From Escherichia coli (lineage in GTDB: Bacteria; Pseudomonadota; Gammaproteobacteria; Enterobacterales; Enterobacteriaceae): a stretch of 64,000 nucleotides of DNA. The stretch lies in NCBI RefSeq assembly GCF_013122565.1, contig NZ_CP053258.1; one strand, given 5' to 3'. This document shows positions 21,694 to 54,090 of this stretch, in pieces. Below the pieces are notes generated by a model. It had not been told where the DNA came from. It made no database searches and worked only from the letters and a program-made list of their open reading frames with translations. The translations under genes were made by a program, and so were the position numbers. Within the stretch, counting starts at the first letter, position 1; the number at the start of each line of letters is the position of its first letter.

Positions 21694-22878
21694 TTAACGG
21701 CTAAAGAAAGCGCGCTGGATCGCCAGTTCGACACCGCGAACTTCGGCCAGGCCTTTCAGACGACCAATTGCGGAGTAACCTGGGTTGGTTTTCTTCTTCA
21801 GGTCGTCCAGCATCTGATGACCGTGGTCCGGACGCATCGGGATCAGGTCTTCTTTGCCTTCCGCTTTACGACGGTGTTCTTCTTCAACAATCGCTTTCAC
21901 CACTTCGTACATATCAACGTCACCGTTCAGGTGCGCCGCTTCGTGGAAGGTTTTCGGGTTATCTTCACGCATGGTGGAGCGCAGATGGGTGAAGTAAATA
22001 CGCGGACCGAACTGCTTGATCATATCAACCAGATCGTTGTCAGCACGCACGCCGTAGGAACCGGTGCACATGGTGAAACCGTTCGCCATGCTGTTTACGG
22101 TATCAACCATCCACTGCATATCTTCAATGGTGGAAACAATGCGCGGCAGGCCAAGGATCGGGCGCGGCGGATCGTCCGGGTGAACCGCCATACGGACGCC
22201 AACTTCTTCAGCAACTGGAATAATCGCTTTCAGGAAGACGGCAAAGTTTTCGCGCAGCTTCGCTTTATCGATATCTTTGTACAGCTCCAGGTGCTTACGG
22301 AACTGGTCGAGGGTATACCCTTCTTCCGCGCCCGGCAGACCGGCAATGATGTTACGCGTCAGACGCGCTTTGTCTTCGTCGCTCATAGTGGCGAAGCGTT
22401 CAGCTGCCTGAGCAATTTCTTCTTCGGTGTAATCCGCTTCCGCGCCTGGACGTTTCAGGATATGCATTTCGAATGCAGCGAATTCGATCTGGTCGAAGCG
22501 CAGAGCTTTGGAGCCGTCTGGCAGCACGTATTCGAGGTCAGTACGGGTCCAGTCGAGCACCGGCATGAAGTTGTAGCACACGGTGCGAATGCCGCACTGC
22601 GCCAGGTTGCGCAGAGTCTGCTGATAGTTAGCGATCCACTGCTCATAGTTGCCAGTGTGGGTTTTGATATCTTCGTGAATTGGTACGCTTTCTACGACAG
22701 ACCACACCAGGCCTGCGTCTTCAACGATCGCCTTGCGTTTGAGGATCTCTTCTACGGACCATACTTCGCCGTTCGGGATATGGTGCAGCGCGGTAACCAC
22801 GCCAGTTGCGCCCGCCTGACGGACATCAGCTAAAGAAACCGGATCGTTTGGGCCGTACCAGCGCCAGGTCTGTTCCAT
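21694..22878 (-). CDS. uxuA: D-mannonate dehydratase
   Basis: ORF 21694..22914; start [14 protein letters not shown] at 22878 with GAGG SD; 394 aa. Confidence 0.9.
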
Positions 22879-24026
22879 GATTTTTCCTCTTTCACATAGT
22901 GGGTTCCACAGCAAAGAGACGCGGAACCCTGGAGTTGTTTAGGTATCCGGATGAACAACCAGACCGCAGCCGTGGCGTTGCATCGGATGAGATGGCGTAT
23001 AAGTTCTACCTTTTGGTAAGACATGTCAACCCGAATTCTAAAATTGGTTAACCACATCACAAGAATTTCACTCTCATGGTTGTTGATGCAAATTGCAGCA
23101 AAGGGTAATCGATGGTTATTGATCAGAGGATGTGACATTCATAGCAACAATGGTTGACCAATTTACATAACATGTCGCCCAAAATAACAATGGATTAACC
23201 TGGAGAGATAAAACGTTATTAGTTTCTCGCAGACTACGGTGGTGATTGCGCTCATGCTGTTCTACACCTCGCGGTCACGATTGGTGAGATCGTGACCGAA
23301 ACATCGCAAGAAGATTTTTACACACCAGTGTCTGATTATTTAACGACGGCCGCCCGGCGGGGTTATACGCAAGTAGTGGTGAAACCCTACTCAACCACGG
23401 CGTCGAGGTGACCAGCGTTCTGAAGCTGCCCAAAATACAATCCTCTTGCAGAGACTATCCTCTGATCGCCTATTTAAAAATGAATGTTGAACAATTAGGA
23501 AAAGGAAATGTGATTTATTACAATAACTACGGTGACTATTCTAATAATATGACTTGTGAATAAAACTAAATGATCAATGGCAATTTACTACAGATAAAAT
23601 GCCTGACGAGATTCAATCATTATATGTTTAACTTGCCAGACATTTATTTTATAATAAAGAAAAATGCACATTCGTCGATTAATATTCAACGCGTAGACGT
23701 CATATCAGATATGCTATTTAAAAGGAATTAACTCTAATGGCACACAGTATAAAGCAATGTTTCCATGCGGTTGGAAAAGGTACTCTTTATACCGGACAGA
23801 TAAAAAACATGTCTAACAACAGGCTTTTTCGTGCCAGCTATATTTGTCCAGTGTGTCACCCCATCCAAAAATTATCCACATCCTGACGTTACGTTAGATA
23901 TAGAGAAAAGAGGTTGTACTGTGCAATATGCAAACCGCATAAGCGAATATAATTTCTAAGTTGATATTGTCTGGCTGTTGGGAGCTAAGCAATATAAATA
24001 TCACCAGTTGTCAGAACGGTTATATA

Positions 24027-24052
24027 GACCAGGAGCGTTTCGGCTCCTGGTC
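24027..24052 (-). terminator. stem-loop immediately downstream of the UvrD-like helicase gene (end of the DISARM-like operon)
   Basis: gaccaggagc / gctcctggtc perfect 10-bp inverted repeat with 6-nt loop, 17 nt beyond the stop codon. Confidence 0.5.
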
Positions 24053-24068
24053 TGTTTCGGACATATTA

Positions 24069-26183
24069 TCAGTCAGCCACTAATAGCGGGCTAGGGATAC
24101 CAGATGATGAAACAAACAGCCCTTTTACGGCACGGGTTGCAGCCACATGCAGTAACGCGCGCTCATTAAATAATGCATCACGCTGTTCAACGGGATCATC
24201 GGATGCTAATGCTTTTATTTCCGGCACAACGCCTTCGTTAATTCCCACCAGGAACACATACTGGAACTCAAGCCCTTTAATACGGTGCATCGTTGCAACC
24301 CGCACGCCAGGGCGTGCATCGCTGTCACCGCTATCATTGCCTAAATTAAATGTCTCAATTCCGGCGTCATTCAGTGCTGATGCGTAGCGGTCACAAGCAT
24401 GTTTAGTACGCGCAGTAATGCAGATATCCTGAGAACGAACCTGATTCGCCAGCAATGCCTGAATTTGCTTGACGAGCGTTGCAGCCTCTTCTTTGAAATC
24501 TGCCGCATGCGTAATCATGGGCTTTTCCCCGTGCAGTAATGACAAATAATCATTACTGGTATCCGCTTCGCCATCGAGGTTATCAACCTTCACACCAGTT
24601 AACAGCCCAACAGCAAATTGACGCGTCTCTTCTGTGGTCCGATAGTTAATCTTCAATTTTTTACTGCGACGACCACGGACGTTAATACCACACTGACCAA
24701 GAACGACCTTATTGCGATAAATACGCTGATGCCCATCCCCGACAATAAACAGATCGTTGGGCGACTCGGGAACCAGGCTGCGAATAAGAGTAAATGCCGG
24801 GGCACCGATATCTTGAGCTTCATCGACCACAATACTGCTATAAGGTAGTTGAACCTGTTTTTCTTTAAACAGAACAATAGCCTCATGCATGGCATCGCCC
24901 ATTTCGCGCAGTTTGGCACGCGCCATTTGTGCTCTGAATTCTTCAAAGACTGGCCAGATTTTCGCCCGTTGAATACGGGATAACGCTGTACCACGTCCAA
25001 CCCGGCTGACTTTGAGGTATTCCTCCCGGGTGTAAACCGCATTTGGCTGGACAACGCGTTGCCACTCTTCAGCATAGAAATTGTCAGGTAGCCCCAGTTC
25101 GGCAGGTGCCTGCTGCAAGGCATAGTTCCAGCATTTGCGTCGCCCTTCATCGCTGTCGTATACCACGCGGAAATCATAACCGTGGCGTTTTAGTTGGTCG
25201 CTCATCCAGGCATCAATGTTAACGACGTCAATACGCGCCATCTCTTCTCGCGTACACAACCGCTGGAGATTAGCGCGAATATCTGCCGCCAGGTTACGCG
25301 TAAATGTCGTGAAAAGTACCTTCTTACCGGGTTTATCTGCCAGACGCTGAGATAACCACCGCGCACGGTGCATCGCAACAACCGTTTTCCCTGTACCTGC
25401 ACCACCCAGTACTCGTACCGGACCATTAGCGGGCGACTCCACCAGTTTTCGCTGGCTCGGATGCAGAAATACACGCCATTTTTCTAAAGGCGCATTAAGC
25501 ATCTGCAACAGCTCCTGTTCATTTTCAACGACATGGAAGCGACGTTTACTTCGTTCAATCGCCTCCATAAAGTCGTTGGTATCAACAGGCTCATCACGAT
25601 GATCGTTAAACTCTTCCAGCACTTCCTGGTAATCCAGCCCTTCTGCCAGCCAGTGCAGAGGTTCCCAGGCTTCTGCTGGCATTATGCTTTCAAGTTGATT
25701 AAGCCCGGCTTCATCGGTAAGCGCCATCACCTGATCAATAAAGACAGGCGGCACACCCAGGGCCAGAATCTGTTCCGCGCTGTAAGCTGCGAAGAGTTTC
25801 GGTTTATCAACCACCGTTTCCGCTGCCGGTTTGATATAGCTAATATCAATGACCTGAATCGCGCCGGTAACCGGGTGAATCGAACAATCATGCCGCCGCG
25901 CCCAGTCGTATGCTTCGTCGTGTTTATCCACCCACATCAGCATATACAGGGCACCCTGTTCAGGTTTCAGAACAATGCCGCGATAAGTTTGATCGATTCG
26001 CACCGAATGGACATTTTTACTGCGCGCATCGTGGATCTTTTCATAGTTAAGTCCATTACTGGTCGGGTCCTGACGGAATTTGGAGATGAATTCCTGCACC
26101 TTTTTTTGCTGTGCTTTTGGGATCCGCGCGAATGCGCCCAGAAAACCATCAGAAAGTGCCACCTTGGGCGTTTGCACCGTCAT
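24069..26183 (-). CDS. UvrD/Rep-type SF1 helicase with an uncharacterized ~200-aa N-terminal domain
   Basis: 704 aa; Walker A VLGGAGTGKTVVAMHRA, motif II IVVDEAQD, C-terminal VATMHRIKGLEFQYVFLVG; ATGA overlap with the upstream gene. Confidence 0.8.
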   Translation of the reverse strand: MTVQTPKVALSDGFLGAFARIPKAQQKKVQEFISKFRQDPTSNGLNYEKIHDARSKNVHSVRIDQTYRGIVLKPEQGALYMLMWVDKHDEAYDWARRHDCSIHPVTGAIQVIDISYIKPAAETVVDKPKLFAAYSAEQILALGVPPVFIDQVMALTDEAGLNQLESIMPAEAWEPLHWLAEGLDYQEVLEEFNDHRDEPVDTNDFMEAIERSKRRFHVVENEQELLQMLNAPLEKWRVFLHPSQRKLVESPANGPVRVLGGAGTGKTVVAMHRARWLSQRLADKPGKKVLFTTFTRNLAADIRANLQRLCTREEMARIDVVNIDAWMSDQLKRHGYDFRVVYDSDEGRRKCWNYALQQAPAELGLPDNFYAEEWQRVVQPNAVYTREEYLKVSRVGRGTALSRIQRAKIWPVFEEFRAQMARAKLREMGDAMHEAIVLFKEKQVQLPYSSIVVDEAQDIGAPAFTLIRSLVPESPNDLFIVGDGHQRIYRNKVVLGQCGINVRGRRSKKLKINYRTTEETRQFAVGLLTGVKVDNLDGEADTSNDYLSLLHGEKPMITHAADFKEEAATLVKQIQALLANQVRSQDICITARTKHACDRYASALNDAGIETFNLGNDSGDSDARPGVRVATMHRIKGLEFQYVFLVGINEGVVPEIKALASDDPVEQRDALFNERALLHVAATRAVKGLFVSSSGIPSPLLVAD

Positions 26184-29100
26184 TTGTCACCTCCGGACAG
26201 ATGTTGCAATGTATTTTCGTCAATTGGCCCGAATGCAACGTGCCAACCTCTGGTTGTGAATAATGGAATAAATTCTTGATTATCAATAATCAATGCCCAT
26301 TTTTGTGATGGCCAGGCGAGATCGGCTTCTGCAATAATTTCACCCTCATCATTTTGCAATTCGTAGCCGAGAGTCGGCGCAGAGAGAGAATGAGACTGAA
26401 GCAACGCGATCTCTTCAGCGCTTAATAAGCCAAACTCAATAATCTCAGCCCAACTTTCATCAGTCTCTGGTACTGCCTCTGGCGTTGCCGAAACTTTAGT
26501 GTCAACGCTTTCCTGCGGTAAATGCACGGCTTTACGGCTGGTAAAGGTCATATCCGGCAGGAACTGTAACAGGTTTACCAGTCGCCAGAAGCCATTGAGT
26601 CCCGCTTCATAACCGTCATCCTGCGTATAGCGATCGTCAAAACAGATATGCAAACGCAGCCAGCTGCGCATTTGTGCGACGCTGGTCGTCGGTTTAATGG
26701 CTTGTTGTGGTAACACCGAAGCCAGTTCAATAAATTGCTGCGATGAGTTACAGCTATCGAGTAAACCACCAAAGACAAACGGTTCGTCTGGCAAAAGCTC
26801 TGCTAGCCGCCAGGCTGGCGCGTTTTCCTGCATTTCATAGGCATACTTTTGTTTCGTTCCCGCGTCCTGTGACTTCTTCACATCCAACCACACCCAGGCA
26901 TGTGCAGCAGCCATTCTCTGCCATAACTGCGTTCTTCCGCCCGGATCGGCGAGATAATCCAGCAGCAGTGCAAAACTGTTACGTTCCCGGAACGACGCTT
27001 CAAGGGCCGCAAAGTTGGTATCGTGAAACAGGTTATAAAACTTAGGCTGTTTCATATCCGGGTTATGCCCAAGTCCCAGGACATCCTGAACATGTTTAAG
27101 CCCAGGCTCTTTGAGATCGGCCCACGTGACTGTCCACACCCAGAAATTACCGCTATCCCGAATCGCCTGGCGTTTTTGCACATCCTCTGCGACGCTATTT
27201 TTGTGGAACGCAAAGCCATCAAGGAAAATAGCCACCGGTTTAATGGCATCAGACTGCATAAGCGGATATAGCACGTAATCCGGGCGACAAGGGATCCCCA
27301 CCGCCTCTTTAGCGCCTAAATCCACCTGAGCTTTAAGATGCCAGCTCATCATCGGTTCGCTGCGGGTGTTAATAATCCACCCAGCGCCCTGATGCGCGTA
27401 ACTGCGACTGACAATCAGGTTTTTATTTTCTTGCAGGCAGCTAATAAACCGTTTTTCCAGCTCACTGCCCATCATGGCTTCGAGGGAAATGTTTTTGATG
27501 GAATCAATTACCCGTATCGAATCTCTTGCCTGCAAAATTTTCGCCAGCAAGAGACGCGCCTGATCGCGGGAGACATACTTCATGCGCCCACGGTCACGGT
27601 AAGCGTAAACGCAACGATAACAACCATCTTTATGCGTATCATTGTTGCAACTGCATTCCACTATTGCCTGATAGGCCAGTTCAAGTAATTTCAGCAAATT
27701 GTCGGGAGTGCGCATCAGCTCTTTAAGAGAACCAGTTCCCCCCGGGACGGTATCGTAAATCACCAGATACTGCCGCCAGGATTCGCCTTCATTTTCCGGC
27801 TCGCGGTACACAACGCCTTTCAGGTGATCGACATTCCCCTTGAAGTAATGCTTAAGGCCGAGCTGGATCGCCGCCCCAAGAGAAGCCTCCACGACACGGT
27901 CATTACTGTAACTGCTTACCGGGAGCAGAATACGCAACGCTTCTGACTCCAGCTGGCGATAGAGGTAGAGATAATCTTCGAACTTCGCCTTTTCCGGTTC
28001 CGTGCGATATTTGCAGCTCAAATCATGACGTGGTTCATGATCGCGAGGACGCTGCACCATGCCGCACCCGAGGCAAACTTTAAACCCGGTTCGCTTCTTC
28101 GCTTCTCCGGCAATCATCAACTCATTGGCATCATCCGCCATTTTGCCGAAGTTGATATCCCGCAGGGTGACTTTGCTTAAAAATTCAAAACCAAACGGAA
28201 CTTCGCCTTCCTCAATCGCGTATGCCGCCGATACATCTTCTTTTTCGAAACTAACCAATAGCTGACGCTGGAAGAAAGCAGGTTCACGGCTGTCGCTCTC
28301 GTCGCTGATCTGGCTATCACGTGCGCTGGCGCGGGCATAAACCTGGCGAAGTTTCAGCAGCGTGGTTTTTTGTCCGGCATCGGCCCACCCCGGTGTGCCA
28401 CATTTCGGGCAATATTTATGCTGGTCGCCCGTCTGGTCGATATTTTCGCTGTAGTTACAGTGGCTACAGATACGCCAGTTCTCCGGCTCAGAGACCTTCA
28501 GGTCTATCTGCTCAATTTCAACTTTATGCCCACCGGCATAGAAATTATTCAGCGGAGCCAGCTCAGCCAGCGCCGTTGATGCCGGGCGTTCATATTCGAA
28601 AGTGGTGTTTTGATATTCACGCGCTTCCCCGCCTTCTTTACGCCGCCAGAGCACAGAACGTAACGTAATACCGGCTTCCGGGAAGGCGTAGTTAGGCAGC
28701 AGCCCTTCATCCGTGAGGAAATTCAGCGTTTGCTTATTGTTGATTTGATTGACCAGCGCCATCAGCGCCTGTCGTTCTGAAGTTAACTCGCGCATATCGC
28801 TATCAAAGTTTTGATCGCGCGGCGCGTTCTCCAGTTTATCGATACTGCGCTTGAGCTTATCGATGCGTGAGCGCAAAGATTTGCGATCTTCCACCAGCAG
28901 TTTTAACGCTTCTTCGATACGCTGCACCAGCGAGCGTTGTCCTGGCGCGCCCTGAAGATAAGACAACAGCTGTTGGCGAGTTTCTGCGGCAAGATCGGGG
29001 AAGATCGCCGTAAATTGTGCAGCAATCTCCGCATGATGCTGTTCGATATATCGCAGTAAGTTATACGGAAAACCCGATTTACGCCCGAACTCCAGCTCAT

Positions 29101-32100
29101 CCAGCATCTGTTTGACGTTTTTACAGATAGCGGATTCTGGTACACCGGTTTTCACCCAGTTATCCATACAAAAAGCTGCCAGCTGGCGTTCGAGAATAGC
29201 CGTTGCATTGAGGAAGACGCCAGGAGCCTGCACCTGGCCCTGCATCATCTCCAGCGGTTCTTCAAAGAAAAACTGATCGTGCGGGTTCCCTTCTGCCACG
29301 GTAATGTTTAACGCGTTACCATCTTTACGACCGGCGCGACCAATACGTTGCAAGTAGTTGGCCTGAGCAGGTGGGACAGAACAGAGTAAAACGGTGGAAA
29401 GATCCCCAACGTCAATACCCATCTCCAGCGTCGGTGTTGCCGACAACAGGTTGATATTCCACGGTTGGTTGCCGCGGTAGAACGATTTTTCGGTGGCTTC
29501 GCGATCTTCACGGCTAAGCAGCCCCGTGTGTTCTGCGCCCTGCACGCGCGCGATGTCCATGTTCTCCCAACGCCAGGTCGCCATATTGTCGACTTCCTGG
29601 TAACGACCTTCACAACGTAAAGAGAGACAAGGCGCATTACGCCACTGCCAGCCTTGATCGGCCGGAGCCCGGACAACCTCACGGCAACATGAGCAATTAA
29701 GCTGAACGACGTCACGGCTCACCACCAGCGCCGAAGGCACCAGTCCCCAGGCTTCACGCCCTTTGGTGTCAAAATCTTTTACTACTCCGGCTATTTTCAA
29801 CGCCGTAAACAGGCGTCGTAACACCGTTTCCGCAACGCTACTGATAAACAGATTATTGCCGTTACTCAGCGTGCGATTGATCCAATGCTGATACCAACTG
29901 GGGTTAGACTTCGCGCCAATCAGGCGATGGAAACCATTAATTTTTTCAAACGACGCATAAGCCGGTTTACGCGTTTTCGGACCGATAGAAGGCATATAGC
30001 GCGAGGTACGCTCTTTTTGCGTCATCATAAAGGTCGTGCCATCACGGCGATAACTTTCGAACGCCGGATGCATAACGGCCCCGGCCTGGCGTTGATACCA
30101 GATAACCCCCAGCGCCAGGTGCGCTACCTGCTCGACGCTCACACCGGACATCTCATCACCCAGCTCTTCACAAAGCTGTTGATGCAGGGCGGTAATTGCC
30201 GGATTAAAGCGTTCTTTATCCACTCCGGCAACGGCATAACCGGTGGCTTCCAGCGTACGTCCGATACGCGCGCGCAGGGTAAATTCGCTGTACACCTCCC
30301 AGTCGAGGCGCAGGGAAACCAGCTCCGGCAGATCGGAGTTCTCCGCCAGTTTGCCTTCATTTTTCAGCGTCTGATAATCATTCAGCCACTGCATATTTGG
30401 TGCGATGAAGTTCGCTGCAAAATGAGCATCGTCCGGTGAACGTTCACGCGTTTGTTGGCAAACACGCGCCGCGAACGCATCCAGCGGTAATGTCTCTTTT
30501 TCGCCAAGAACACTGGCGATTTGCCCACGAATCATCAGCGGCCAGGTACGGGCAGTAAAGAAGCTGGCACGATGCGCGGCGTCTTGTACCGAGTCAGAAA
30601 ACGTAATCAGCTTTTTATGTTCGTTGAACTGGCTGCCATAAAGCTGGTGAATCATCACCGCCGACAAACTAGCAGCCCGTGACCCCAGGATCGAAATCCC
30701 CTGTTTGCTGTTGCAGTACGGGCATTCATTAGCAAACTCCAGCTCGTCCTTACGCTCTTTGAGCATATCCGGGATCAGTACCTGCAACAGTTCCGTATGA
30801 CCGCAATATCCACACTGGACGCTGGACTGTCGGTTCAGTTTCAGACAGGTAGGGCATAGTTTCTGGTGTGCGCCACTGACCGCTTTTTCGTTGTTATCCG
30901 GGAAAGCAAGGACGATGGAGCGCCCTTTTTCAAAGAACTGGCGATAAATGCCGTCGAGGTCTGTTTCCAGCTGAACGCTTTGCCCATGACGCAGGCTGGC
31001 CCAGCCGGTTGCATGGCAGTCACGGCAGTGGATAACCGGCAAATAGTGTTCGCGATCTTCCACCGCCACATCATCGGCAAACACCAGTCTCGGCGTTTTC
31101 GCCACGCTGGCGACCAGACGACGCATCTCACGAAGCCACAACTGGGAACGCAGTTGCACAAACGGCAACACCGGGCGCGCTTTCTTCGCCTGGAGACGTT
31201 TTTGCCGATCGTGGTCCGTTTCCGGTACTTCGAGACGTGCCTGCGCGATCAGCGCCAGAATGCTTTGCAGCACGCTTCGGGCATGGTCGGCGCTTTCTGC
31301 CAGCATGACCTGGAGATTTTCCAGACACTCTCGTTCAGAGAGGATACCGCCTTGCAGATCATGGAGTAAGACATGCATCACGCTGTGGCGGCGTAACAGT
31401 GACCCCAGCGCAATACGCTTTTCACGCCCGTCGTCGCTCTCCAGATCGTCCGGAAGCTGCAAGTCGCTGTCGGGGAACCACAAAGGAATTTGCCCGTTGA
31501 GATACGCCACCGGGGTAGCGTAACTCTGCGGGTCCAGGGCCGAAGCGACCTCCGGCCCCGGATACTGACTGTACGCAATGGCGTAATCCTGCAAGTACTC
31601 CGCTGCCGTGTAGCGATCTTCGCGAATAACGGCGTCATCGGTAAACGGCTGGTCAAAGATTGTTTTTGCGTAATCGAGCAGTTGCCCCAGTTCGTCGCCG
31701 ACGGTAGCTGATGTCCCGACGCAGGCGAATCGTTGGTTATCCACACCTATGTGATGCTTCAGACGTCGCACCAGACAGGCCAGATCCGACCCCTGCGCGC
31801 CATCAAACGTATGCAATTCATCCACGACCAGGTAACGCAATGAACCGGGCTGGTTGTAACGCCAGAGCGGCTGATCGCCAGGGCGCATCAGCAGGTAGTC
31901 GAGCATTTTGTAGTTGGTCAACAGGATGTCCGGCGGGCTTTCGCGCAGCGTGTGCTTGCAGGTAATGACCTTTTCTGCCGACATTTTTTTGCTGGGTTCG
32001 ATTTCGCTGTCGCCGACAAACAGGCCGACGGTCACCTTGCCATGCAGTTGTGGATCGCTGGCGATGGTTTTGGCGAAACGGCTGGCCTGATCGGTTGCCA

Positions 32101-32521
32101 GGGCGTTCATCGGGTAGATGATAATCGCTTTAACCCCGGCTTGTGACGCGCCCGCGCAGTGGTTGAGCAGCGGGAACATAAAGCATTCTGTTTTACCGGA
32201 GCCGGTACCGGTAGCGACCAGCGTCGGCTGTGGCGCGTCGCTTCCCAGACGCTGAAATGCCCGGGCCTGATGCGCGTGCGGCGGGAACGGCAGCGTCAGA
32301 TTAGGGAAGAAATTCAGCGGTAAGTCACTTTTACGAAACGGCAACTGGGCGGAAAGGTATGGTCCTTTCAGCAGCGTTTCGGGCTGGGCCAGAAATTGCT
32401 CCAGCATTGAGACATTATCGTTATTCTCACCGTTAAACAGCGGGCTGTTTAGCGGGAACGCCGCCCGTAAAAAGGCGGCAACGCTGTCGGCGACCTGCCG
32501 ACTGACAACGGACGGCAACAT
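26180..32521 (-). CDS. giant helicase with C-terminal Cys-rich Zn-ribbon region (DUF1998-like); fused DrmA/DrmB-like, DruE-like
   Basis: 2113 aa; Walker A GTGSGKTECF, DEAH-type motif II VVDELH, helicase C region (QRIGRAGRKDG), several CxxC pairs (CSHCN...CPKCG, CLGCG, CYRCVYAY); 1-nt stop/start overlap with the methyltransferase gene. Confidence 0.8.
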   Translation of the reverse strand: MLPSVVSRQVADSVAAFLRAAFPLNSPLFNGENNDNVSMLEQFLAQPETLLKGPYLSAQLPFRKSDLPLNFFPNLTLPFPPHAHQARAFQRLGSDAPQPTLVATGTGSGKTECFMFPLLNHCAGASQAGVKAIIIYPMNALATDQASRFAKTIASDPQLHGKVTVGLFVGDSEIEPSKKMSAEKVITCKHTLRESPPDILLTNYKMLDYLLMRPGDQPLWRYNQPGSLRYLVVDELHTFDGAQGSDLACLVRRLKHHIGVDNQRFACVGTSATVGDELGQLLDYAKTIFDQPFTDDAVIREDRYTAAEYLQDYAIAYSQYPGPEVASALDPQSYATPVAYLNGQIPLWFPDSDLQLPDDLESDDGREKRIALGSLLRRHSVMHVLLHDLQGGILSERECLENLQVMLAESADHARSVLQSILALIAQARLEVPETDHDRQKRLQAKKARPVLPFVQLRSQLWLREMRRLVASVAKTPRLVFADDVAVEDREHYLPVIHCRDCHATGWASLRHGQSVQLETDLDGIYRQFFEKGRSIVLAFPDNNEKAVSGAHQKLCPTCLKLNRQSSVQCGYCGHTELLQVLIPDMLKERKDELEFANECPYCNSKQGISILGSRAASLSAVMIHQLYGSQFNEHKKLITFSDSVQDAAHRASFFTARTWPLMIRGQIASVLGEKETLPLDAFAARVCQQTRERSPDDAHFAANFIAPNMQWLNDYQTLKNEGKLAENSDLPELVSLRLDWEVYSEFTLRARIGRTLEATGYAVAGVDKERFNPAITALHQQLCEELGDEMSGVSVEQVAHLALGVIWYQRQAGAVMHPAFESYRRDGTTFMMTQKERTSRYMPSIGPKTRKPAYASFEKINGFHRLIGAKSNPSWYQHWINRTLSNGNNLFISSVAETVLRRLFTALKIAGVVKDFDTKGREAWGLVPSALVVSRDVVQLNCSCCREVVRAPADQGWQWRNAPCLSLRCEGRYQEVDNMATWRWENMDIARVQGAEHTGLLSREDREATEKSFYRGNQPWNINLLSATPTLEMGIDVGDLSTVLLCSVPPAQANYLQRIGRAGRKDGNALNITVAEGNPHDQFFFEEPLEMMQGQVQAPGVFLNATAILERQLAAFCMDNWVKTGVPESAICKNVKQMLDELEFGRKSGFPYNLLRYIEQHHAEIAAQFTAIFPDLAAETRQQLLSYLQGAPGQRSLVQRIEEALKLLVEDRKSLRSRIDKLKRSIDKLENAPRDQNFDSDMRELTSERQALMALVNQINNKQTLNFLTDEGLLPNYAFPEAGITLRSVLWRRKEGGEAREYQNTTFEYERPASTALAELAPLNNFYAGGHKVEIEQIDLKVSEPENWRICSHCNYSENIDQTGDQHKYCPKCGTPGWADAGQKTTLLKLRQVYARASARDSQISDESDSREPAFFQRQLLVSFEKEDVSAAYAIEEGEVPFGFEFLSKVTLRDINFGKMADDANELMIAGEAKKRTGFKVCLGCGMVQRPRDHEPRHDLSCKYRTEPEKAKFEDYLYLYRQLESEALRILLPVSSYSNDRVVEASLGAAIQLGLKHYFKGNVDHLKGVVYREPENEGESWRQYLVIYDTVPGGTGSLKELMRTPDNLLKLLELAYQAIVECSCNNDTHKDGCYRCVYAYRDRGRMKYVSRDQARLLLAKILQARDSIRVIDSIKNISLEAMMGSELEKRFISCLQENKNLIVSRSYAHQGAGWIINTRSEPMMSWHLKAQVDLGAKEAVGIPCRPDYVLYPLMQSDAIKPVAIFLDGFAFHKNSVAEDVQKRQAIRDSGNFWVWTVTWADLKEPGLKHVQDVLGLGHNPDMKQPKFYNLFHDTNFAALEASFRERNSFALLLDYLADPGGRTQLWQRMAAAHAWVWLDVKKSQDAGTKQKYAYEMQENAPAWRLAELLPDEPFVFGGLLDSCNSSQQFIELASVLPQQAIKPTTSVAQMRSWLRLHICFDDRYTQDDGYEAGLNGFWRLVNLLQFLPDMTFTSRKAVHLPQESVDTKVSATPEAVPETDESWAEIIEFGLLSAEEIALLQSHSLSAPTLGYELQNDEGEIIAEADLAWPSQKWALIIDNQEFIPLFTTRGWHVAFGPIDENTLQHLSGGDK

Positions 32522-35500
32522 CAGGCGCTCTCCTTATCTTGTGCAAAGAACGCCCAGGCCACTTTGTAGTCGTCTTCGCGATCCGGCTTGATAAACGGTG
32601 CCTGCCAGGTGACGGTACGGCGCTCGCCTTCGTCGCTGCGGGTATAGTCATCAAAGGTGACGCTGACGGTACCAGTTTTAAGATGTTTGACATCATCCCA
32701 GCCGATGGCTTGATCGGTGCAGTCACCGCCGGTCCACTCCGGGCTGTCGACGTTAAAGACAAAGCCGTTTTTCAGGTCAGCTTTACGCGCGGTACGCGGC
32801 AGACCGACGCCCACCAGCCCTTTGCTTGGGGTAAAGATGATGCGGCCGTTTTGGTCGTACCAGGTGTCCGCTTCGTACTGACGCATCACCGGGAACTGAA
32901 CGCGATAAATGGTAAGCAGTTCTTCGAGGGTTAACCCCAGCGCCTGCGCCACCAGTACGTCGATTTCCACCAGCGCCTGACGACGACTGTAGTCAGAGCG
33001 TAAGGCGCAGTTACGCTGCCACTCTGGGGTCAGATTGGTGAAGAAATCCTGGGGGAGCTGCGGGAGATCGCGGCTCCAACGCTGGGTGTTGAAATCTGGG
33101 GTGTAGCAGGATTGCCAGAGATCGGCATAACTTCTCACTAGCGATACAAGGCATAGAGCCCGACTATGTAGTGCTGTACGATAAGCATCATTTGTAAGTA
33201 CTGGCAGTTGGTTAATAAGAGAGGTATTGGCATGCCCCATACCCGTACTTTTCACACGATAATCCAACGGTACAGAAAGAGTCATCGAAAAATAGTCAAG
33301 CAATAATTGAGTATCTTTAAACGCCGTTCCAAGACAAGTATTTATATGGCTCACACCTGGTGGCACAATTGTTGTAATTAATGTTCTTTCAGATGATGGA
33401 CCTATCATTTCACGATTAACAAAACGATAATAGTCCGTCACCTTCCTCGGCTCGTCTTCATCCTGCTCTTTCCACGAAACCCGTGGGGTGCGCTTTGCAT
33501 ACTCCTGTGCATCACAGGCTGGAATATAGTTAGTGCGCGGCAAATAGTCGTCGGGCAGAGTTAGCAAGTCCAGGCAGTCATAATGTCCTTTCTCTGTGCA
33601 AATTTCTCTCGGCGTTTTATAAAGCGGTGTTCCAACATAGAAGTGCGGACCAGACAAAATCCATTGGGATGCGTCTTCCGGGAATTGGGTATGCCGTTCG
33701 ATTGTGCCATCACTTTGTTGATTTGTTTCATGCCACATTTCAAGAGACAAATATTGCCCCTGCAAATCCCCCAGCCGTTTAGGTTGCTTAGCGAATTTTT
33801 CAAGTACAGAAACAAGCGGTTCAGCATGAAGCGCTGGGAGTCGAGCTTCAAGATCCGGCGTTCCCTCTTCATCATAAAGAGTGGCAAATAGTGCAAGCCG
33901 TTCCATTCCAACGGTCAAAATACGGCTTTGATGCCCCGCTTCATTCCAGGAACCTGTTTCGTCATCTTTAATGCCGCCAACTTCACCGGAACCATCATGC
34001 GCAAGACAAAGCTCGATCGTTTTGGCTGAGAAAAGGTTTGCAATATTGATAAAGCCGACAGATTGATTCGGTGAAGCCGTATAAATATTAATGCTGAATT
34101 TAACCCTGTGACCAATAGGGAAAAGCATATGCTGATTCTGAAACTGAAAATGTGCCCTCAGTCTCGGATACACTGCCGCACGAAGCTGCCCGCCTTTCGG
34201 GTCATCATAAATCCCTTCCGGGTGCAGGAAACCTGACACGCCTTTCTGCGCCCCTAAGCGCCAGGCCTGAGGCAGGAAGCATTTATACAAGTTGGTCTGC
34301 ACCCCGCGCAGTACCGGGTAGTTCTGCTGCGCATTGAGGAAGTTTTGCATCCCTTCACAGCCTTCATACTCGCTGCGCCAGGCCGCTTCCAGCGCCGGGA
34401 TCTGGTTGAAGGTATCAATACGCAACGTTGCCAGCTTCGATGCACTCAGCTTACGTAGCACAAATTCCGGCTCGTAATCACCCAGCACGCCCGCTTCCTG
34501 CCATTCCACTTTCAGCCACGGCGGGTTTCCGAGCATCAGGTCAAAACCGCCGCGCTCGGCAAACAGGTCGCAGAACTCCAGATCCCAGTGGAAGAAACGG
34601 TGCTGCTTTCTCAGGGCATCGACAATCGCCAGACGCGGTAAATGACGGAACAACACCTCAGTTTTCAGACGACCTGCGCCGGAAAACAGTGAAGACTCTT
34701 CTCGCAGCAGGCCTTCTTCGGCAAACAGATCACCAGTGGTGTGCTCCGCAACTTCAGTGACTTTTTCCGTAATTACAATCCCGTCGAGCAGGGTTTCAAT
34801 CTCAAACAACCAGGTGCCGCGATCCGGTAACTCATCGGCTTTGTCGATCGGCCAGAACCACAGCGCGCACCAGTAGTCCATTACCCAACGCAGCTTCTGG
34901 TAGGCGCTGTTATCTTCAAGACGACCACTGAAGGTTTCATCTTTACTGCTCAGCGAAGAACGCGTCTGCTCGCTGTTTTCTGCCGGCCACACCGGGTAGC
35001 TGTCGGCGGTTTTCAGACGTTCTGCTTTAAGTTGCTGGCGATAGGTGTTCCACAGTGCTTCCACCTTTTCGCTGATACGCTGCACATCAGCAATCTCATG
35101 CCCGGCAAAGCTTTTAATAAACTCTTTGCGCCAGCTGTCCAGCGCTTTGAAGTCATCCGGATAACGCTGCTTAACGGTTTTATCGCTGTAGTTAGCCATA
35201 CCGCCGTCGGGCAGCAGGAAGTGGAAAATCTGCGTCTCTTCACGCGGCGTGTTCATCGCCAGCTCGACCGGTTCGCTGTTAAGCCAGCTCGGATCTTTGG
35301 CTTTTTTGTAGGTCAGTTCGCTCTTGTTGAACACCTGACGGCGCGCGCCCACCAGCGAGTTACCGCAGTGCAACTGGTAACCAAACCACGGTACAAACGC
35401 ATCGCCACTAATGGCGTTCAGCCACAGTGACACTTCCGCCAGTTCCACCGCCACCGGGTTTAAGTCCACGCCGAAAACGTTGTTGTCGGCAATGTACATT

Positions 35501-37437
35501 TTCACCCGCTGTAACTCCTGGGTGTAACGATCCTGCGGAATACGGCGACCTTCCGCCTGCTGCTTATGGAACAGATACGCTTCCGCCAGCTGGTTGATGG
35601 CTTCGTTAAGGAACGCCGCGCTGCCCATCGCCGGTTCGCACACGGTGAGGTTTAAGATGGCGTCGGCTTTGGCGTGCGGATCGCTAATGGGATCAATCTG
35701 CTCCTTAAACAGTTCTTTCAGAGCATATTTAACCAGTGAGCGGGTCAGCACTTCCGGGGTGTAATAAGATGCAGATTTCTCACGGTCGCGCCCGGCCATA
35801 CGGTAGATAAAACTGCCTTTGCGGTGAATGCGCAGACTGCCGTCTTTCTCGTAGACCTTCTCGTCTTCGTGGTATTTGCCAATCTCATCCTTACTGACGA
35901 AGTAACCCGTCTCCAGCTCGTTAAACTCTTCCCCGGCTTTCTTCACCTCGTAGAGATCTTCGCTGGCGAAGAATCCGCGATAGGAGAGCAGCGCCTCATA
36001 CACCGCACCCAACTGGTTGATACCCAACTGGCGATAAGATATACGTCCACGGCGGTTAAAGCGCCCTTTGCCCGGGCGGCTTAACGACATCGCCTGGATA
36101 ATCTGTTGCAGGGTTTCGTTACGGAATACCACGCGGTTAAGAATGCGGGTGTTGTTGGCATCGAAAAGATGACTTTCCAGACGCGGGACGCTGAACTGAT
36201 GACTATGGATGGTGATCCGGTCGCCGCTCTCCAGGTCACTCTGCATTTTCACGCCGCCGTTGTAGCCTTCGCGCACCAGTTTAAACAGCATATTCAGGCT
36301 GTCGTGGAAGTAGCGCCCGTTGCGATCTTCTTCGCTGGTCAGCGGGATCATCTCCAGATCGCGCAACGTTTCCAGGCTGTAGCCCTGTAGATAGGTTTTG
36401 GCGGTCATTGGCGCATAACCCAGCTCCGGGCGCGCTTCAATGTAGAACAGGAACAGCAGGCGGTACATGTAACGCAGACATTCGCGGCTCAGTTCATCCG
36501 GGTCCACCGCACGGTTACCGGTATAGTTTGCCAGGCCACGGTCGATCAGATAATGCATCGCTTCGTTGCCCAGCAACTCAATGCTTTCGCGCAGGGCATA
36601 TTTCAGATCTTCCGAAACACCAAACGCATGTTTGTGCGAATTGTCATCCAGCGAGTCAAGATAAGGTGCCCCACTGCCCGGCAGCAGAGAATCTTTATGT
36701 AGCAACACCGCCGTCGCTTTCAGCGTATCCGTTTCACGACGACTTAAAATCTCTTCAAAATCAAAACGTAGCAGACGGTTTTGCGCCCACTTAGTACGGT
36801 CCAACAACAATAGCTGACGGTTACCGAGCAGCAGCACAAAACGCGGCGGTTCATTTTGGGTGAAGACCGCCGTAGAGAGCAGATCCTGCCAGCTGCGATA
36901 TTCACCGTTGGCTTTTTTGCGCAGGCTGTCGCGCTTATGTTTGTCGGTATCCGCCGGGAATTGCGCGGTCAGTAAGGAGAGCGCCAGCGGATCCAGCGTT
37001 CCTTCTTCCTGATCGTGTGCTTCAACAATCCACAGCCACGGGCTACCGTCAGTGCTGTTGTAACGCGCCAGTACCGGCAGTGGTGTATCGTCATCCAGCA
37101 TTTGGATCTGCGGCGTAATTTCGTAGCCCAGCGCCTTTAACAATGGCTGCCAGCGATTACGTTGATCGGCCAGACGCTGCGGGATCTGACGCTGTTTTTC
37201 GTGCTCGGCAAGTTTGCGGAAAAACTCAGTCGCCAGACTGTTAAACTGGTTCCACGGAGCGCGGTATCCCGGCTCCACGTCTTTGCCCTGTTCACGAGCG
37301 GCACGTTCCGCTTCACGCGCTGCATTTTCCTGGGCTATCCAGGGTTCCAGCACATCGCGGATATCACTGGTGAAAACCTCACCCAAATAATGGTTAGAGT
37401 AAAATTCGTTTTCGTTATTAATACCGACCAGCGCCAT
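32521..37437 (-). CDS. large N6-adenine DNA methyltransferase (Eco57I/PglX/DrmMI-like, gamma-class)
   Basis: 1638 aa; AdoMet motif I CEPAMGSAAFL and catalytic motif IV GNPPW; starts 2 nt after the SNF2 gene stop, with a GGAGGG SD inside the SNF2 coding end. Confidence 0.8.
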   Translation of the reverse strand: MALVGINNENEFYSNHYLGEVFTSDIRDVLEPWIAQENAAREAERAAREQGKDVEPGYRAPWNQFNSLATEFFRKLAEHEKQRQIPQRLADQRNRWQPLLKALGYEITPQIQMLDDDTPLPVLARYNSTDGSPWLWIVEAHDQEEGTLDPLALSLLTAQFPADTDKHKRDSLRKKANGEYRSWQDLLSTAVFTQNEPPRFVLLLGNRQLLLLDRTKWAQNRLLRFDFEEILSRRETDTLKATAVLLHKDSLLPGSGAPYLDSLDDNSHKHAFGVSEDLKYALRESIELLGNEAMHYLIDRGLANYTGNRAVDPDELSRECLRYMYRLLFLFYIEARPELGYAPMTAKTYLQGYSLETLRDLEMIPLTSEEDRNGRYFHDSLNMLFKLVREGYNGGVKMQSDLESGDRITIHSHQFSVPRLESHLFDANNTRILNRVVFRNETLQQIIQAMSLSRPGKGRFNRRGRISYRQLGINQLGAVYEALLSYRGFFASEDLYEVKKAGEEFNELETGYFVSKDEIGKYHEDEKVYEKDGSLRIHRKGSFIYRMAGRDREKSASYYTPEVLTRSLVKYALKELFKEQIDPISDPHAKADAILNLTVCEPAMGSAAFLNEAINQLAEAYLFHKQQAEGRRIPQDRYTQELQRVKMYIADNNVFGVDLNPVAVELAEVSLWLNAISGDAFVPWFGYQLHCGNSLVGARRQVFNKSELTYKKAKDPSWLNSEPVELAMNTPREETQIFHFLLPDGGMANYSDKTVKQRYPDDFKALDSWRKEFIKSFAGHEIADVQRISEKVEALWNTYRQQLKAERLKTADSYPVWPAENSEQTRSSLSSKDETFSGRLEDNSAYQKLRWVMDYWCALWFWPIDKADELPDRGTWLFEIETLLDGIVITEKVTEVAEHTTGDLFAEEGLLREESSLFSGAGRLKTEVLFRHLPRLAIVDALRKQHRFFHWDLEFCDLFAERGGFDLMLGNPPWLKVEWQEAGVLGDYEPEFVLRKLSASKLATLRIDTFNQIPALEAAWRSEYEGCEGMQNFLNAQQNYPVLRGVQTNLYKCFLPQAWRLGAQKGVSGFLHPEGIYDDPKGGQLRAAVYPRLRAHFQFQNQHMLFPIGHRVKFSINIYTASPNQSVGFINIANLFSAKTIELCLAHDGSGEVGGIKDDETGSWNEAGHQSRILTVGMERLALFATLYDEEGTPDLEARLPALHAEPLVSVLEKFAKQPKRLGDLQGQYLSLEMWHETNQQSDGTIERHTQFPEDASQWILSGPHFYVGTPLYKTPREICTEKGHYDCLDLLTLPDDYLPRTNYIPACDAQEYAKRTPRVSWKEQDEDEPRKVTDYYRFVNREMIGPSSERTLITTIVPPGVSHINTCLGTAFKDTQLLLDYFSMTLSVPLDYRVKSTGMGHANTSLINQLPVLTNDAYRTALHSRALCLVSLVRSYADLWQSCYTPDFNTQRWSRDLPQLPQDFFTNLTPEWQRNCALRSDYSRRQALVEIDVLVAQALGLTLEELLTIYRVQFPVMRQYEADTWYDQNGRIIFTPSKGLVGVGLPRTARKADLKNGFVFNVDSPEWTGGDCTDQAIGWDDVKHLKTGTVSVTFDDYTRSDEGERRTVTWQAPFIKPDREDDYKVAWAFFAQDKESA

Positions 37438-37439
37438 GA

Positions 37440-40298
37440 TTAACCCTCCGCTCCGGTGATAACAGCAATTACCTGAATGTAGGGTTCTTTTTCAGTCGTC
37501 ATGGTGTCCTCAATCCATTCGATATAGCTGTCAAAATTGTGTTCGATTTCGCGTTGTCTCTGCTCTTTACGGCTCTGCTTGACTGACAATTGCTGTTTGT
37601 TATCGGCAAAATCCAGCTCAAGTTGGCTCAACTGCCGCCCACGCAAAACGTCCAGCTTTTGCAGATGCTCGTTCAGTTGCTGGTTAATGTGCGTTTCAAA
37701 CGCATTCCGATCATGGATAAATACCTCCCGGGCATGCGCAATAGCCGCTTCCAGTAAATCCTGCTGGCGCTGGTGATTACGATCTTTACCGCCGCTGTTA
37801 GTCAGATTGTTACTCAACTGCGGATGACGTTGTAAAAACTCAGCGAATGGCTGACTGCCGATTAGCGATTCACGGTCAAAGCTCACCACTATCCACGGGT
37901 TCACCATCGGATGTGATTTACGGTTCGGGAATAACCCGGAAAGAATGAAGTGATCTTCATCGGGTTCAAGCAGGTATGGCAGACGGATAACCGGTGCCTG
38001 ATGACGACCAAAAGCCGAAGAGATTTTATCGTCCAGCCACTGCACTACCGGGTTGATTTGCCAGAGATACTGCACATCGGGCCAGGCATGTTGCTCACCG
38101 CGAGCGCGCGCAATCGCGTCGGTGATGACGGTTTTATCCTGACTTAAATAGAGCTGCCAGTTCTCCGGGGCAATTTCAGGCGGTAGCTGGTTGAAGCGGC
38201 GGCGTAACTCCTCCGGTGCCACCAGCGACAAGGTATTATCAGGCAAGGTTTCATACTGGATAGTTTGACCACTGGCTTTCAGGTAACCCAATGCTCTTTC
38301 ACAGTACGCCTGTTCGCTGGCAAACAAGCTGGTGTCTGTTTCGGTAACCATTGAGGCATCGCTGGAAACCGCACTGCATATTTCGCCAAACAGATCATGT
38401 TCGGCGCTTTCCGAGACGTTGCTGTTCAGCAGTTGATCAAACAGGCTGGCACCATCATCCTGCATCATGAACTCTGCAACCTGCTCTTCTTCCTCTTCCT
38501 GGGTAAATTTGCCGGTAAACTCCGAACTGTCCCCAATGTTCTTCTGCGCCTGTTCGTCTTTGTTGATCAACACTTCCAGTACGCGCATATCGCCATTGAT
38601 CTGTGGTTCGCTGGCCTCGGTAAGCAGATAGCGGATTTGAGGCTGATGTTTTTGCCCATAGCGGTCAATACGCCCGTTACGTTGCTGGAATACCATCAAC
38701 GACCACGGAATATCAAAGTGAATCATTTTGTGGCTAAGGTGATGCAAGTTGATCCCTTCAGATGCCACATCCGAACAAACCAGAAGACGCAACGGAGACT
38801 GCGTTTTACCAAAGGCTTCTACGGTTTCCATCAATACCGTATCGCCCTGATCGCCGCGCAGCGTGGCGATCTGGTCATCTTTCAATTTCAGATCCGCTCG
38901 CAGTTGCTGTTCGAGGAACTCCAGCGTTTTAATACTTTCGGTGAAGATCACCAGGCGATCTTCCGTGTTATTGGCTTTCCAGGCGAGGTCTTTTCGGATG
39001 GTGTCGAGCAGCAACTGGTATTTGCTAAACTGGCTGGCATCAATGTTATTCAGCGCCAACAGCAATGACTCCAGTTCGTTGATCTGGCTCTGGCTATTAT
39101 GATCTTTACGGCTCTCAAGACGCTTCAGACGATTCGCCACTACGCTGGCACACGCCATCGGGCTGGAAAATAGCGCTTTTTCGAGGGTTATCTTGAACAG
39201 ACGACCTTTGTTAGACTGGGCCTGTTCATCGTCATCATCACGGAACTGGCTCTCAACCAGGCGACGGTATGCTTCTTCTTCGGCACCAGATGCCAGGCGA
39301 GTCAGTTTGACAATATTGCGCTCGGGGAACTCGCCGGACATCTGATCTTTCACGTCTTTTTTGAAGCGACGGACAACCAGATTTTTATCGGCAAAATCGG
39401 CGTATTCATACTCTTTCGGGTTGGCGATCGCCGTCGGGTCAAGCATGTTCATCAGGCTGGCAAAACTTTCAGCCTTACCATCATGCGGTGTTGCTGAAAG
39501 CATAATCAGCGTATCGCTGCGCCCGGCGAGCAGTTTTGCCAGTTTACTGCGTAACGAACTGGTTCCACGTTCTGCGACGTTATGGGCCTCATCAATGACA
39601 ATAATATCCCACCAGGCATTTTCCAGATGGTGACGATATTCAATGTCTTGTTTCAGCGTATCGATGGAGATAATGGTCTTGTCAAAATAGTGGAACGGGT
39701 TGTGGTTGGTTGGGATGCGGTTACGCACCTTTTGTAAACCAGCAGAATCCAGGCGGGTCAATGGGATCGCAAAACGGCTCCAGAACTCCTTCTGGAATTG
39801 TGTCAGCATCGATTTAACCGCCAGAACCAGAATACGTTTTCCGCGCCCACGACGGATCAGTTCCGAAACCAGAATACCGGCTTCCAGCGTTTTACCCAGA
39901 CCGACAGCGTCGGCAATGAGTATCCGCTGGCGCGGTTGTGCCAGCGCCATCCGCGTAGGATCGAGCTGAAACGGCATGGAATCCATCGCCGCCAGATGAC
40001 CAAAATGGACTTTACTGTCTGTCGGTACGCGTTGGCGTAACTGACTTTCAATATACAACTGTGCCGCTTGATAATTGGCGGATTCATCTTCCACCAAATG
40101 CGTTTTTGCGGGATCAAGGATCTCTACTTTTTGTTCCAGTTTGGTCAGAAATAACCCTTCTTTACCGCGCACCAGCTCTGAAATACCATCGCAGGTCAGC
40201 AAATACCCACCATCACCACTGTCATCCGCCCGGCGAATACGCCATTCGGCATCACGAATAACCACCCGCATACCAGGTGCATAATTTTGCTTATTCAT
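37440..40298 (-). CDS. SNF2-family helicase/ATPase (DrmD-like)
   Basis: 952 aa; Walker A DAVGLGKTLEAG, DEAH-box IVIDEAHN, helicase C motifs (HFDIPWSLMVFQQRNGRIDRYGQ). Confidence 0.8.
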   Translation of the reverse strand: MNKQNYAPGMRVVIRDAEWRIRRADDSGDGGYLLTCDGISELVRGKEGLFLTKLEQKVEILDPAKTHLVEDESANYQAAQLYIESQLRQRVPTDSKVHFGHLAAMDSMPFQLDPTRMALAQPRQRILIADAVGLGKTLEAGILVSELIRRGRGKRILVLAVKSMLTQFQKEFWSRFAIPLTRLDSAGLQKVRNRIPTNHNPFHYFDKTIISIDTLKQDIEYRHHLENAWWDIIVIDEAHNVAERGTSSLRSKLAKLLAGRSDTLIMLSATPHDGKAESFASLMNMLDPTAIANPKEYEYADFADKNLVVRRFKKDVKDQMSGEFPERNIVKLTRLASGAEEEAYRRLVESQFRDDDDEQAQSNKGRLFKITLEKALFSSPMACASVVANRLKRLESRKDHNSQSQINELESLLLALNNIDASQFSKYQLLLDTIRKDLAWKANNTEDRLVIFTESIKTLEFLEQQLRADLKLKDDQIATLRGDQGDTVLMETVEAFGKTQSPLRLLVCSDVASEGINLHHLSHKMIHFDIPWSLMVFQQRNGRIDRYGQKHQPQIRYLLTEASEPQINGDMRVLEVLINKDEQAQKNIGDSSEFTGKFTQEEEEEQVAEFMMQDDGASLFDQLLNSNVSESAEHDLFGEICSAVSSDASMVTETDTSLFASEQAYCERALGYLKASGQTIQYETLPDNTLSLVAPEELRRRFNQLPPEIAPENWQLYLSQDKTVITDAIARARGEQHAWPDVQYLWQINPVVQWLDDKISSAFGRHQAPVIRLPYLLEPDEDHFILSGLFPNRKSHPMVNPWIVVSFDRESLIGSQPFAEFLQRHPQLSNNLTNSGGKDRNHQRQQDLLEAAIAHAREVFIHDRNAFETHINQQLNEHLQKLDVLRGRQLSQLELDFADNKQQLSVKQSRKEQRQREIEHNFDSYIEWIEDTMTTEKEPYIQVIAVITGAEG

Positions 40299-50195: not shown

Positions 50196-50406
50196 CCTGC
50201 CTTCCTTTGATACAATTCGTAACAGGTTACTATCATCATAAAAAAGCTCAACCCGATGAACTCGCTAAAAATGAGACAAATCATTTATATCTCGAAAAAA
50301 CTTGTTACAATCATGAGCGCTACACCGAACTTAACCATATAAATTATGTGTGTTTTGTTTATTTTTTAAACGATTACAACTATCCATTATTTACACAGGT
50401 ATCAAA

Positions 50407-53880: not shown

Positions 53881-53891
53881 ATTCTAAAACT

Positions 53892-53915
53892 CCGTGAAAG
53901 TTAAGACTTTCACGG
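53892..53915 (+). terminator. stem-loop after zorE
   Basis: ccgtgaaagt / actttcacgg 10-bp inverted repeat with 4-nt loop, 11 nt after the stop; following tract is A-rich not U-rich. Confidence 0.4.
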
Positions 53916-54090
53916 AAGATAAATAAAATTATTCTGATTTGTGACTCAAATTACAAAAGTAGTTAATGGCATAACTTGTCTTGTTTTTATGGTATAACAG
54001 GTATAAAGGTATATGCTATGGTTCGCCTCATACTTAAAACTTCCCTCATACGGGTGAAGGTTAAAGCTTGGTAGACAGGAGACAGTCACA

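Follow-up and report, generated by a model that had tools for sequence, protein, structure and literature searches.

The 1,190-bp gap between uxuA and armD in the stretch of Escherichia coli DNA analysed here (the window; 64,000 nt) is very likely a non-coding composite scar, comprising the uxuA–gntP spacer, an illegitimate join, the stump of a uracil-DNA-glycosylase (UDG)-family gene, an AT-rich spacer and the 3' flank of armD. It represents a real but ordinary island boundary, in which a breakpoint separates a regulatory spacer from a cargo pseudogene and a 3' flank. The breakpoint is sharp and lies between positions 23219 and 23220, at the second base of the gntP ATG, which fixes the left boundary of the island to the base. 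The island is OI-172, an already published defence island (ARMADA II, Druantia III and Zorya II), and its span, from 23220 to ~54060, stands in place of the gntP–fim–nanC segment of the chromosome.

Extent and composition of the gap

In the ORF list, the gap between the start of uxuA (start codon at 22876–22878, minus strand) and the armD stop covers 22879–24068, and the largest ORF wholly contained in it encodes 53 aa. No features are annotated by NCBI under the equivalent segment where the same sequence occurs in other genomes, in agreement with a reading of the sequence alone (hereafter the sequence-only reading), which had seen no convincing ORF. A typical E. coli intergenic region is far shorter than a 1.2-kb ORF-free gap; here, the length is fully explained by the spacer, the pseudogene and the 3' flank. 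The GC content was 0.419 for 22879–23219, 0.515 for 23220–23460, 0.307 for 23461–23822 and 0.407 for 23823–24068, compared with 0.53–0.59 for uxuAB, so that the succession of a GC-richer stretch and AT-rich DNA noted previously was reproduced by measurement. The same reading had placed the uxuA promoter/operator region within the gap and had taken the latter for the scar at the island's left boundary; both proposals hold, with the complete uxuA–gntP spacer present, backbone homology stopping at 23219 and the sequence from 23220 onward travelling with the island. Alignment of the entire gap to the region upstream of uxuA in K-12 would have spoken against the latter proposal, but only the first 341 nt align. 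The coordinates of all features are compiled in Table 1.

Table 1. Features of the backbone flanks, the junctions and the island in the window.
Feature	Positions	Strand	Basis
uxuA (mannonate dehydratase), backbone gene left of the junction	21694–22878	-	ORF list; annotated uxuA in collinear genomes
Complete 339-bp uxuA–gntP divergent control region (backbone)	22879–23217	.	BLAST and base-for-base alignment
Inverted repeat AAATTGGTTAACCA / TGGTTGACCAATTT	23041–23164 (arms 23041–23054, 23151–23164)	.	Repeat search; 14 nt, 93% complementary
Apparently orphaned gntP leader/ribosome-binding site ending in start-codon "AT"	23191–23219	+	Column-by-column comparison of four gntP+ genomes and three junction-type sequences
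53 nt, open in the frame of the downstream pseudogene	23220–23272	+	Travels with the island segment in 9/9 genomes
UDG-family pseudogene, relative of WP_001026378.1	23273–23563	+	tblastn, blastn, family profile
AT-rich spacer	23564–23822	.	Patchy alignability to SMS-3-5-type spacer
armD 3' flank, conserved in OI-172 islands	23823–24068	-	Homology to ~520 island-bearing chromosomes
armD (UvrD/GajB-like helicase), last gene of the ARMADA II operon, first island gene on this side	24069–26183	-	PADLOC GajB, Pfam UvrD
ARMADA II four-gene operon, DrmD-, DrmMI-, DruE- and GajB-like products (ArmA–D)	24069–40298		PADLOC
DruE3	40522–46845		PADLOC, E = 0
DruH3	46836–50195		PADLOC, E = 0
ZorA2	50350–52059		PADLOC
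zorB2	52066–52773		Annotation of collinear SMS-3-5, ATCC 8739 and TW14425 islands
ZorE2	52777–53880		PADLOC
Right island junction	54041–54072	+	Backbone-grade identity resumes at ~54061–54073

The backbone to the left of the island is that of an E. coli-type chromosome (yjiM ... uxuR, uxuB, uxuA). Of note, two genes in this part of the window are absent at the respective positions from the backbone of Res13, namely one for a 720-aa pentapeptide-repeat protein (2909–5071) and one for a 1,746-aa inverse autotransporter/invasin-like adhesin (7637–12877; IAT_beta, eight Big_1 stretches and Invasin_D3). The yjiK–yjiJ region between them is 81% identical to Res13.

Within the island, nine ORFs of at least 150 aa were found, each of which matches a defence-system component, zorB2 being assigned from the annotation of collinear islands. 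PADLOC and the paper on OI-172 (bioRxiv 10.1101/2025.09.22.677730) place armABCD, druHE and zorABE in the published order, and the UvrD/GajB-like protein carries the name ArmD in that work. The island is collinear with that of SMS-3-5 at 97–98% nucleotide identity. Within the gene for the armB methyltransferase (32521–37437), a segment of ~0.3–1 kb (33132–33422 and 33429–34491) is unalignable to the Res13 and SMS-3-5 alleles, the remainder being 98% identical, which probably reflects a swapped specificity domain.

The left breakpoint and the gntP leader

Positions 22879–23219 (query positions 1–341) were matched by megablast in 5,404 of 5,426 complete E. coli genomes at 95–99% identity, with the far end of the match touching annotated gntP in most of these 5,404. 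In a K-12-like genome, the uxuA–gntP spacer measures 339 bp and gntP begins at the next base. Positions 22879–23217 align to this spacer (L002:6001–6339) without gaps, and the following two bases, 23218–23219, supply the "AT" with which the start codon of gntP begins and are the last backbone-homologous bases found by blastn at word size 7. Over the 341 nt up to 23219, 11 differences from the K-12-like sequence were counted, seven of them within 23191–23208, so that only four sites differ in the remaining ~320 nt.

These seven substitutions in 18 nt lie in the gntP leader and are followed by 11 perfectly conserved nucleotides up to the break, the 29-nt leader as a whole being 76% identical to the E. 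coli version. The substitutions are common to all junction-type sequences, in which the leader carries CCTGGAGAGATAAAACGTTATG, and absent from four diverse gntP+ genomes. A 21-mer of this variant leader had no exact match among 100,044 species-representative genomes.

The inverted repeat of the spacer resembles UxuR/ExuR boxes, and we take it to be a candidate for such boxes; K-12, O157 and the junction-type genomes do not differ in either arm. In K-12, UxuR binds a single site in the uxuA–gntP spacer (PMC5934670). From the sequence, the uxuA side of the control region appears intact and would still serve uxuA, and the gntP promoter and leader appear to be present as orphans, with gntP itself absent from this place.

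A decayed UDG-family gene at the island end

A tblastn search of the window with the SMS-3-5 UDG-family protein returned two matches (E = 5e-15 and 3e-5) immediately downstream of the first 53 nt of the island. Amino acids 39–67 were located at 23274–23360, followed by a frameshift and amino acids 71–109 at 23357–23473; ~78 codons are then deleted, and amino acids 188–216 with the stop (23474–23563) directly follow amino acid 109. The start codon and the first ~38 amino acids at the 5' end are missing, and the longest ORF fragment spans 68 aa. A profile search with the 150-member family matched positions 31–98 of 198 on the frame-corrected translation (E = 2.6e-10). Compared with the SMS-3-5 allele, blastn gave nucleotide identities of 72.5% and 80%, and protein identity to WP_001026378.1 was 56–62% over amino acids 39–109 and 48% over amino acids 188–216. 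Owing to the 5'-truncation, the frameshift and the internal deletion, the segment was classified as a pseudogene, and it is a decayed, divergent allele of the terminal UDG-family gene of the island. For the preceding 53 nt (23220–23272), comparisons with gntP, the SMS-3-5 UDG-family gene and the family profile gave nothing significant.

The SMS-3-5 gene (L003:11861–12511) is intact (216 aa) and has the position and orientation beside the armD 3' flank that the truncated, frameshifted and internally deleted copy has in the window. The intact protein WP_001026378.1 scores below threshold against the Pfam UDG model (18.1 bits for a cut-off of 24.3), and the intact SMS-3-5 protein had no PADLOC match. 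The nearest relatives of WP_001026378.1 outside the enterobacteria, with ~47% identity, come from Bacteroidales and Clostridia and carry PF03167. At the island end, the gene is dispensable and decays repeatedly: SMS-3-5 retains it intact, EDL933 has lost it by an exact excision, IS1 cuts it in ATCC 8739 and only a stump is left in the window. Its losses in EDL933, ATCC 8739 and the window lineage were independent.

An intact copy of the allele in the window was sought in several collections. A word-indexed protein search returned two ORF fragments only, and tblastn among 151 family representatives gave no relative closer than the E. coli allele. A search seeded with the SMS-3-5 protein retrieved the E. 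coli/Shigella allele, followed by the relatives of ~47% identity, with no window allele among them. There was no match in the plasmid collection, and two exact-pattern scans of the 100,044 species genomes for the window allele or the variant leader yielded zero matches. A metagenome scan likewise yielded zero matches, although a JGI contig carries the sequence, which indicates that this collection is incomplete for such use.

The AT-rich spacer that follows is 259 bp long, compared with 267 bp in SMS-3-5-type islands, and the global alignment of 23564–23822 to the SMS-3-5 spacer scored within the range of shuffled sequences, with two patches detected by tblastx.

The right junction and the missing backbone

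On the right side, the backbone resumes at the nanC stop and the nanM leader. Of the last 32 nt before the nanM leader, 18 are identical in register to the 3' end of nanC; for the sequence beyond these last ~32 nt, tblastn and local alignment gave no significant nanC remnant. The patch at 54041–54072 may be a very divergent nanC terminus. Its terminal stop codon lies almost as far from nanM as the native one, and the patch is common to all island copies examined, including the copy linked to the island in SMS-3-5. Relative to the K-12-like genome, 12,510 bp are missing, which comprise gntP, fimHGFDCIA, fimE, fimB and nanC.

Downstream of zorE, SMS-3-5, ATCC 8739 and the window share a non-coding tail, which leads into a nanM fragment in the first two and into a complete, native-looking nanM–nanS in the window; a nanM fragment marks the right end of each of the other island copies examined. 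Because SMS-3-5 and ATCC 8739 still carry this fragment, the intact zorE|nanM junction would predate their arrangements, and the window would accordingly preserve an arrangement older than the common ones. This junction is useful for reconstructing how the island moved, together with the IS1 brackets in ATCC 8739 and the plasmid copies.

Beyond nanS (57278–61659), a gene for an AbiEii toxin overlaps a DUF6088 gene, probably as an AbiE-type toxin–antitoxin pair, and DUF4942, RadC and DUF932 genes follow, which are typical cargo of CP4-like islands.

Distribution of the junction and other placements of the island

Positions 23220–24068 are present as a whole in nine of the 5,426 complete E. coli genomes, namely S43, six Canadian pig isolates designated "Res13-...", MB06022 and TW14425; one JGI metagenome contig carries the junction sequence as well. 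Base-by-base checks of Res13, TW14425 and the JGI contig showed the identical breakpoint. In turn, 23220–23822 is absent from the 5,395 genomes that possess the uxuA spacer without the junction. The junction is rare and of single origin. Across the nine junction-type genomes, 23220–23822 is 99.5–99.7% identical, and the flanks differ more.

In other chromosomes the island is placed differently. Homology to ~520 island-bearing chromosomes begins at 23823/23826, at 96–98% identity. In SMS-3-5 and EDL933, nanM and a nanS pseudogene are present and the island follows nanS; in ATCC 8739, it lies inside the pheU island between two IS1 copies. The latter copy (L007/L008; NZ_CP033020.1, ~4,234,197–4,268,311) includes the nanM fragment, is bracketed by IS1 and adjoins an integrase, an arrangement that looks like a relocation in the manner of a composite transposon. 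In addition, armD and armC were found at 94–98% identity in ~22 places on plasmids (a ~92-kb type; e.g. NZ_CP114794.1, 93 kb, L016). Homology on these starts 50 bp past the armD stop, with the hairpin described below included, beside an IS3 remnant. A "terminase" is annotated under the match on one of the plasmids carrying armD and armC, which may therefore be a phage-plasmid.

At this locus, the nine genomes pay for OI-172 with gntP (fructuronate uptake), all of the type 1 fimbrial operon and nanC, a swap that would amount to colonisation functions traded for phage defence.

Proposed origin of the junction

We infer that the island first lay immediately upstream of nanM, and that illegitimate recombination then deleted the DNA between the start codon of gntP and a point within the island's UDG-family gene. 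Such a deletion would have removed gntP–fim–nanC along with the original left end of the island, and the resulting junction would later have spread by descent and homologous recombination. In the present arrangement, the orphaned gntP promoter would probably fire into the stump, with the transcript ending at or before the hairpin at the armD end.

The left end of the island complicates this scheme. Positions 23220–23822 are only 72–80% identical to the SMS-3-5-type island end, compared with 97–98% for the rest of the island, and a simple, recent deletion in an SMS-3-5-like island can therefore not be the whole story. It would seem that either the island belongs to a divergent lineage or its end was replaced through recombination. 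The variant leader, the divergent island end and the nanC-like patch hint that the joint may have been made in a more distant relative, or with DNA from one.

Replacement in a single step is a possible but rather doubtful alternative. Here, a fragment carrying the UDG stump, the island and nanM would have recombined homologously in nanM/nanS and illegitimately, or by a short homeologous patch, at the gntP leader, with direct replacement of gntP–fim–nanC (homology-facilitated illegitimate recombination). Other island copies carry ~500 bp of nanM at their right end, which could have provided a homologous anchor, and the resemblance of the 29-nt leader to the E. coli version, with its perfect match at the break, would suit the other end; the stump, moreover, is a foreign, divergent allele. 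However, nanM is native-looking in both the window and TW14425, and no derived sites are shared with the island-linked fragment beyond 54072. Moreover, a donor with the variant leader or the UDG allele of the window was not found in the genomes searched, and the outcome would be indistinguishable from that of an insertion followed by a deletion. Insertion of the island and subsequent deletion is favoured over the one-step replacement, both of which give the same product.

The armD flank and the search for hidden elements

At the right end of the gap, positions 24026–24053 form a hairpin with a perfect 11-bp stem (-24.7 kcal/mol, z = -6.6) that lacks a U tract. A scan of the gap found no intrinsic terminators, and no Rfam matches were obtained in 22700–24300 at E values up to 1. 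A promoter scan yielded five sites, compared with 3.8 (sd 2.0) in shuffled sequences; the same scan found none in the K-12-like spacer and hence says nothing on the real uxuA and gntP promoters.

It is highly improbable that the AT-rich part conceals a functional element, be it a small protein or a regulatory RNA of armD. One promoter-like site (10/12) lies at 23628–23655, and a 49-aa ORF containing Cys and His residues (23737–23886) is preceded by AGGA as a plausible ribosome-binding site; the near-identity of 23220–23822 among the junction-type genomes, with less conserved flanks, would also fit a conserved function. Against this, the part of SMS-3-5-type islands that corresponds to the 5' half of the ORF consists of unrelated sequence with stops and without an ATG, promoter-like sites are no commoner than in shuffles, and neither an Rfam match nor an annotation in the nine genomes points to an RNA or protein. 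The high identity, for its part, fits recent common descent. The pseudogene and the AT-rich spacer are probably without function.

Two further readings were given very little credence. In the first, the orphaned gntP promoter, putatively controlled by UxuR/ExuR and hexuronates, would transcribe across the scar towards the convergent armD, and the hairpin at 24026–24053 would serve as a two-way stop. If true, this reading would couple the expression of ARMADA II, or of a small product of the spacer, to gut hexuronate availability in a rare lineage. In a more sober version, likewise improbable, the junction type would preserve the primary entry site of OI-172 into E. coli, with the 29-nt leader and the 32-nt nanC-like patch left behind by a homeologous donor.

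Previous assignment of the GC-richer stretch and absence of an attachment site

The sequence-only reading had proposed that the GC-richer stretch at 23220–23460 could be left over from a displaced gntP or fim region, an assignment that is hardly tenable. Its GC content is nearer to that of the backbone than to that of the adjoining AT-rich DNA, and 23220–23272 directly follows the gntP ribosome-binding region. However, the K-12-like gntP–fimH–fimD locus gives no match past 23219 even with blastn at word size 7, and the local alignment of 23220–23270 to gntP scored 18, at the level of shuffled sequences (mean 17, maximum 24). In-register identity to gntP after the start codon was 13/41, which corresponds to the random level. 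In addition, 23273–23563 is demonstrably the remnant of a UDG-family gene, and 23220–23822 is missing wherever the spacer occurs without the junction. On the strength of the blank blastn search and the shuffle-level alignment, the gntP/fim assignment was rejected. The stretch is thereby no longer mislabelled as a gntP/fim relic, and the 1.2-kb gap contains a pseudogene, with no missed gene.

That the junction is the attachment-site scar of a site-specific integrative element is barely conceivable: although the surrounding leuX island is a classic region for integration and an integrase adjoins the island copy inside a pheU island, ARAGORN found no tRNA in the 64 kb, 22879–24068 and 53700–54300 have no word of at least 11 nt in common (three 10-mers look like chance), so that the short direct repeats to be expected near 53.9–54.1 kb under the sequence-only reading did not appear, no integrase is encoded by the nine island ORFs of at least 150 aa, the join has cut a cargo gene short and taken away 12.5 kb of backbone, and the ATCC 8739 island was moved by flanking IS1 copies rather than by its own ends. 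The lack of att repeats, tRNA and integrase, combined with the truncated cargo gene, therefore argues for an illegitimate (or short-homeology) joint.

Comparison with known arrangements

Neither the island nor the variable region nor the phenomenon is new; a placement of OI-172 at the expense of gntP–fim–nanC was not found described in the searchable literature. Compared with OI-172 elsewhere, the window contains the same nine genes in the same order, at 97–98% identity from 23823 to the nanM leader, along with the same armD 3' flank and hairpin. By contrast, the ~600 bp at its left end are a divergent allele with respect to SMS-3-5-type OI-172. The island of the window abuts the uxuA spacer, whereas the EDL933 and SMS-3-5 copies are located past nanS, with an IS remnant in front of them; fim, nanC and, where checked, gntP are intact in those two genomes, whereas gntP–fim–nanC is absent from the window.

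The interval from uxuABR–gntP to leuX is a known mosaic island with repeated lineage-specific loss of fim segments (PMC4374849). The window covers the same interval and is another case of the phenomenon, in which fim and nanCMS (yjhATS) segments are lost or replaced in particular lineages. In the Shigella/EIEC variants described there, which result from deletion and IS insertion, gntP mostly survives as the left flank; in the window, by contrast, the left edge is shifted to the start codon of gntP, and the gap is occupied by a defence island.
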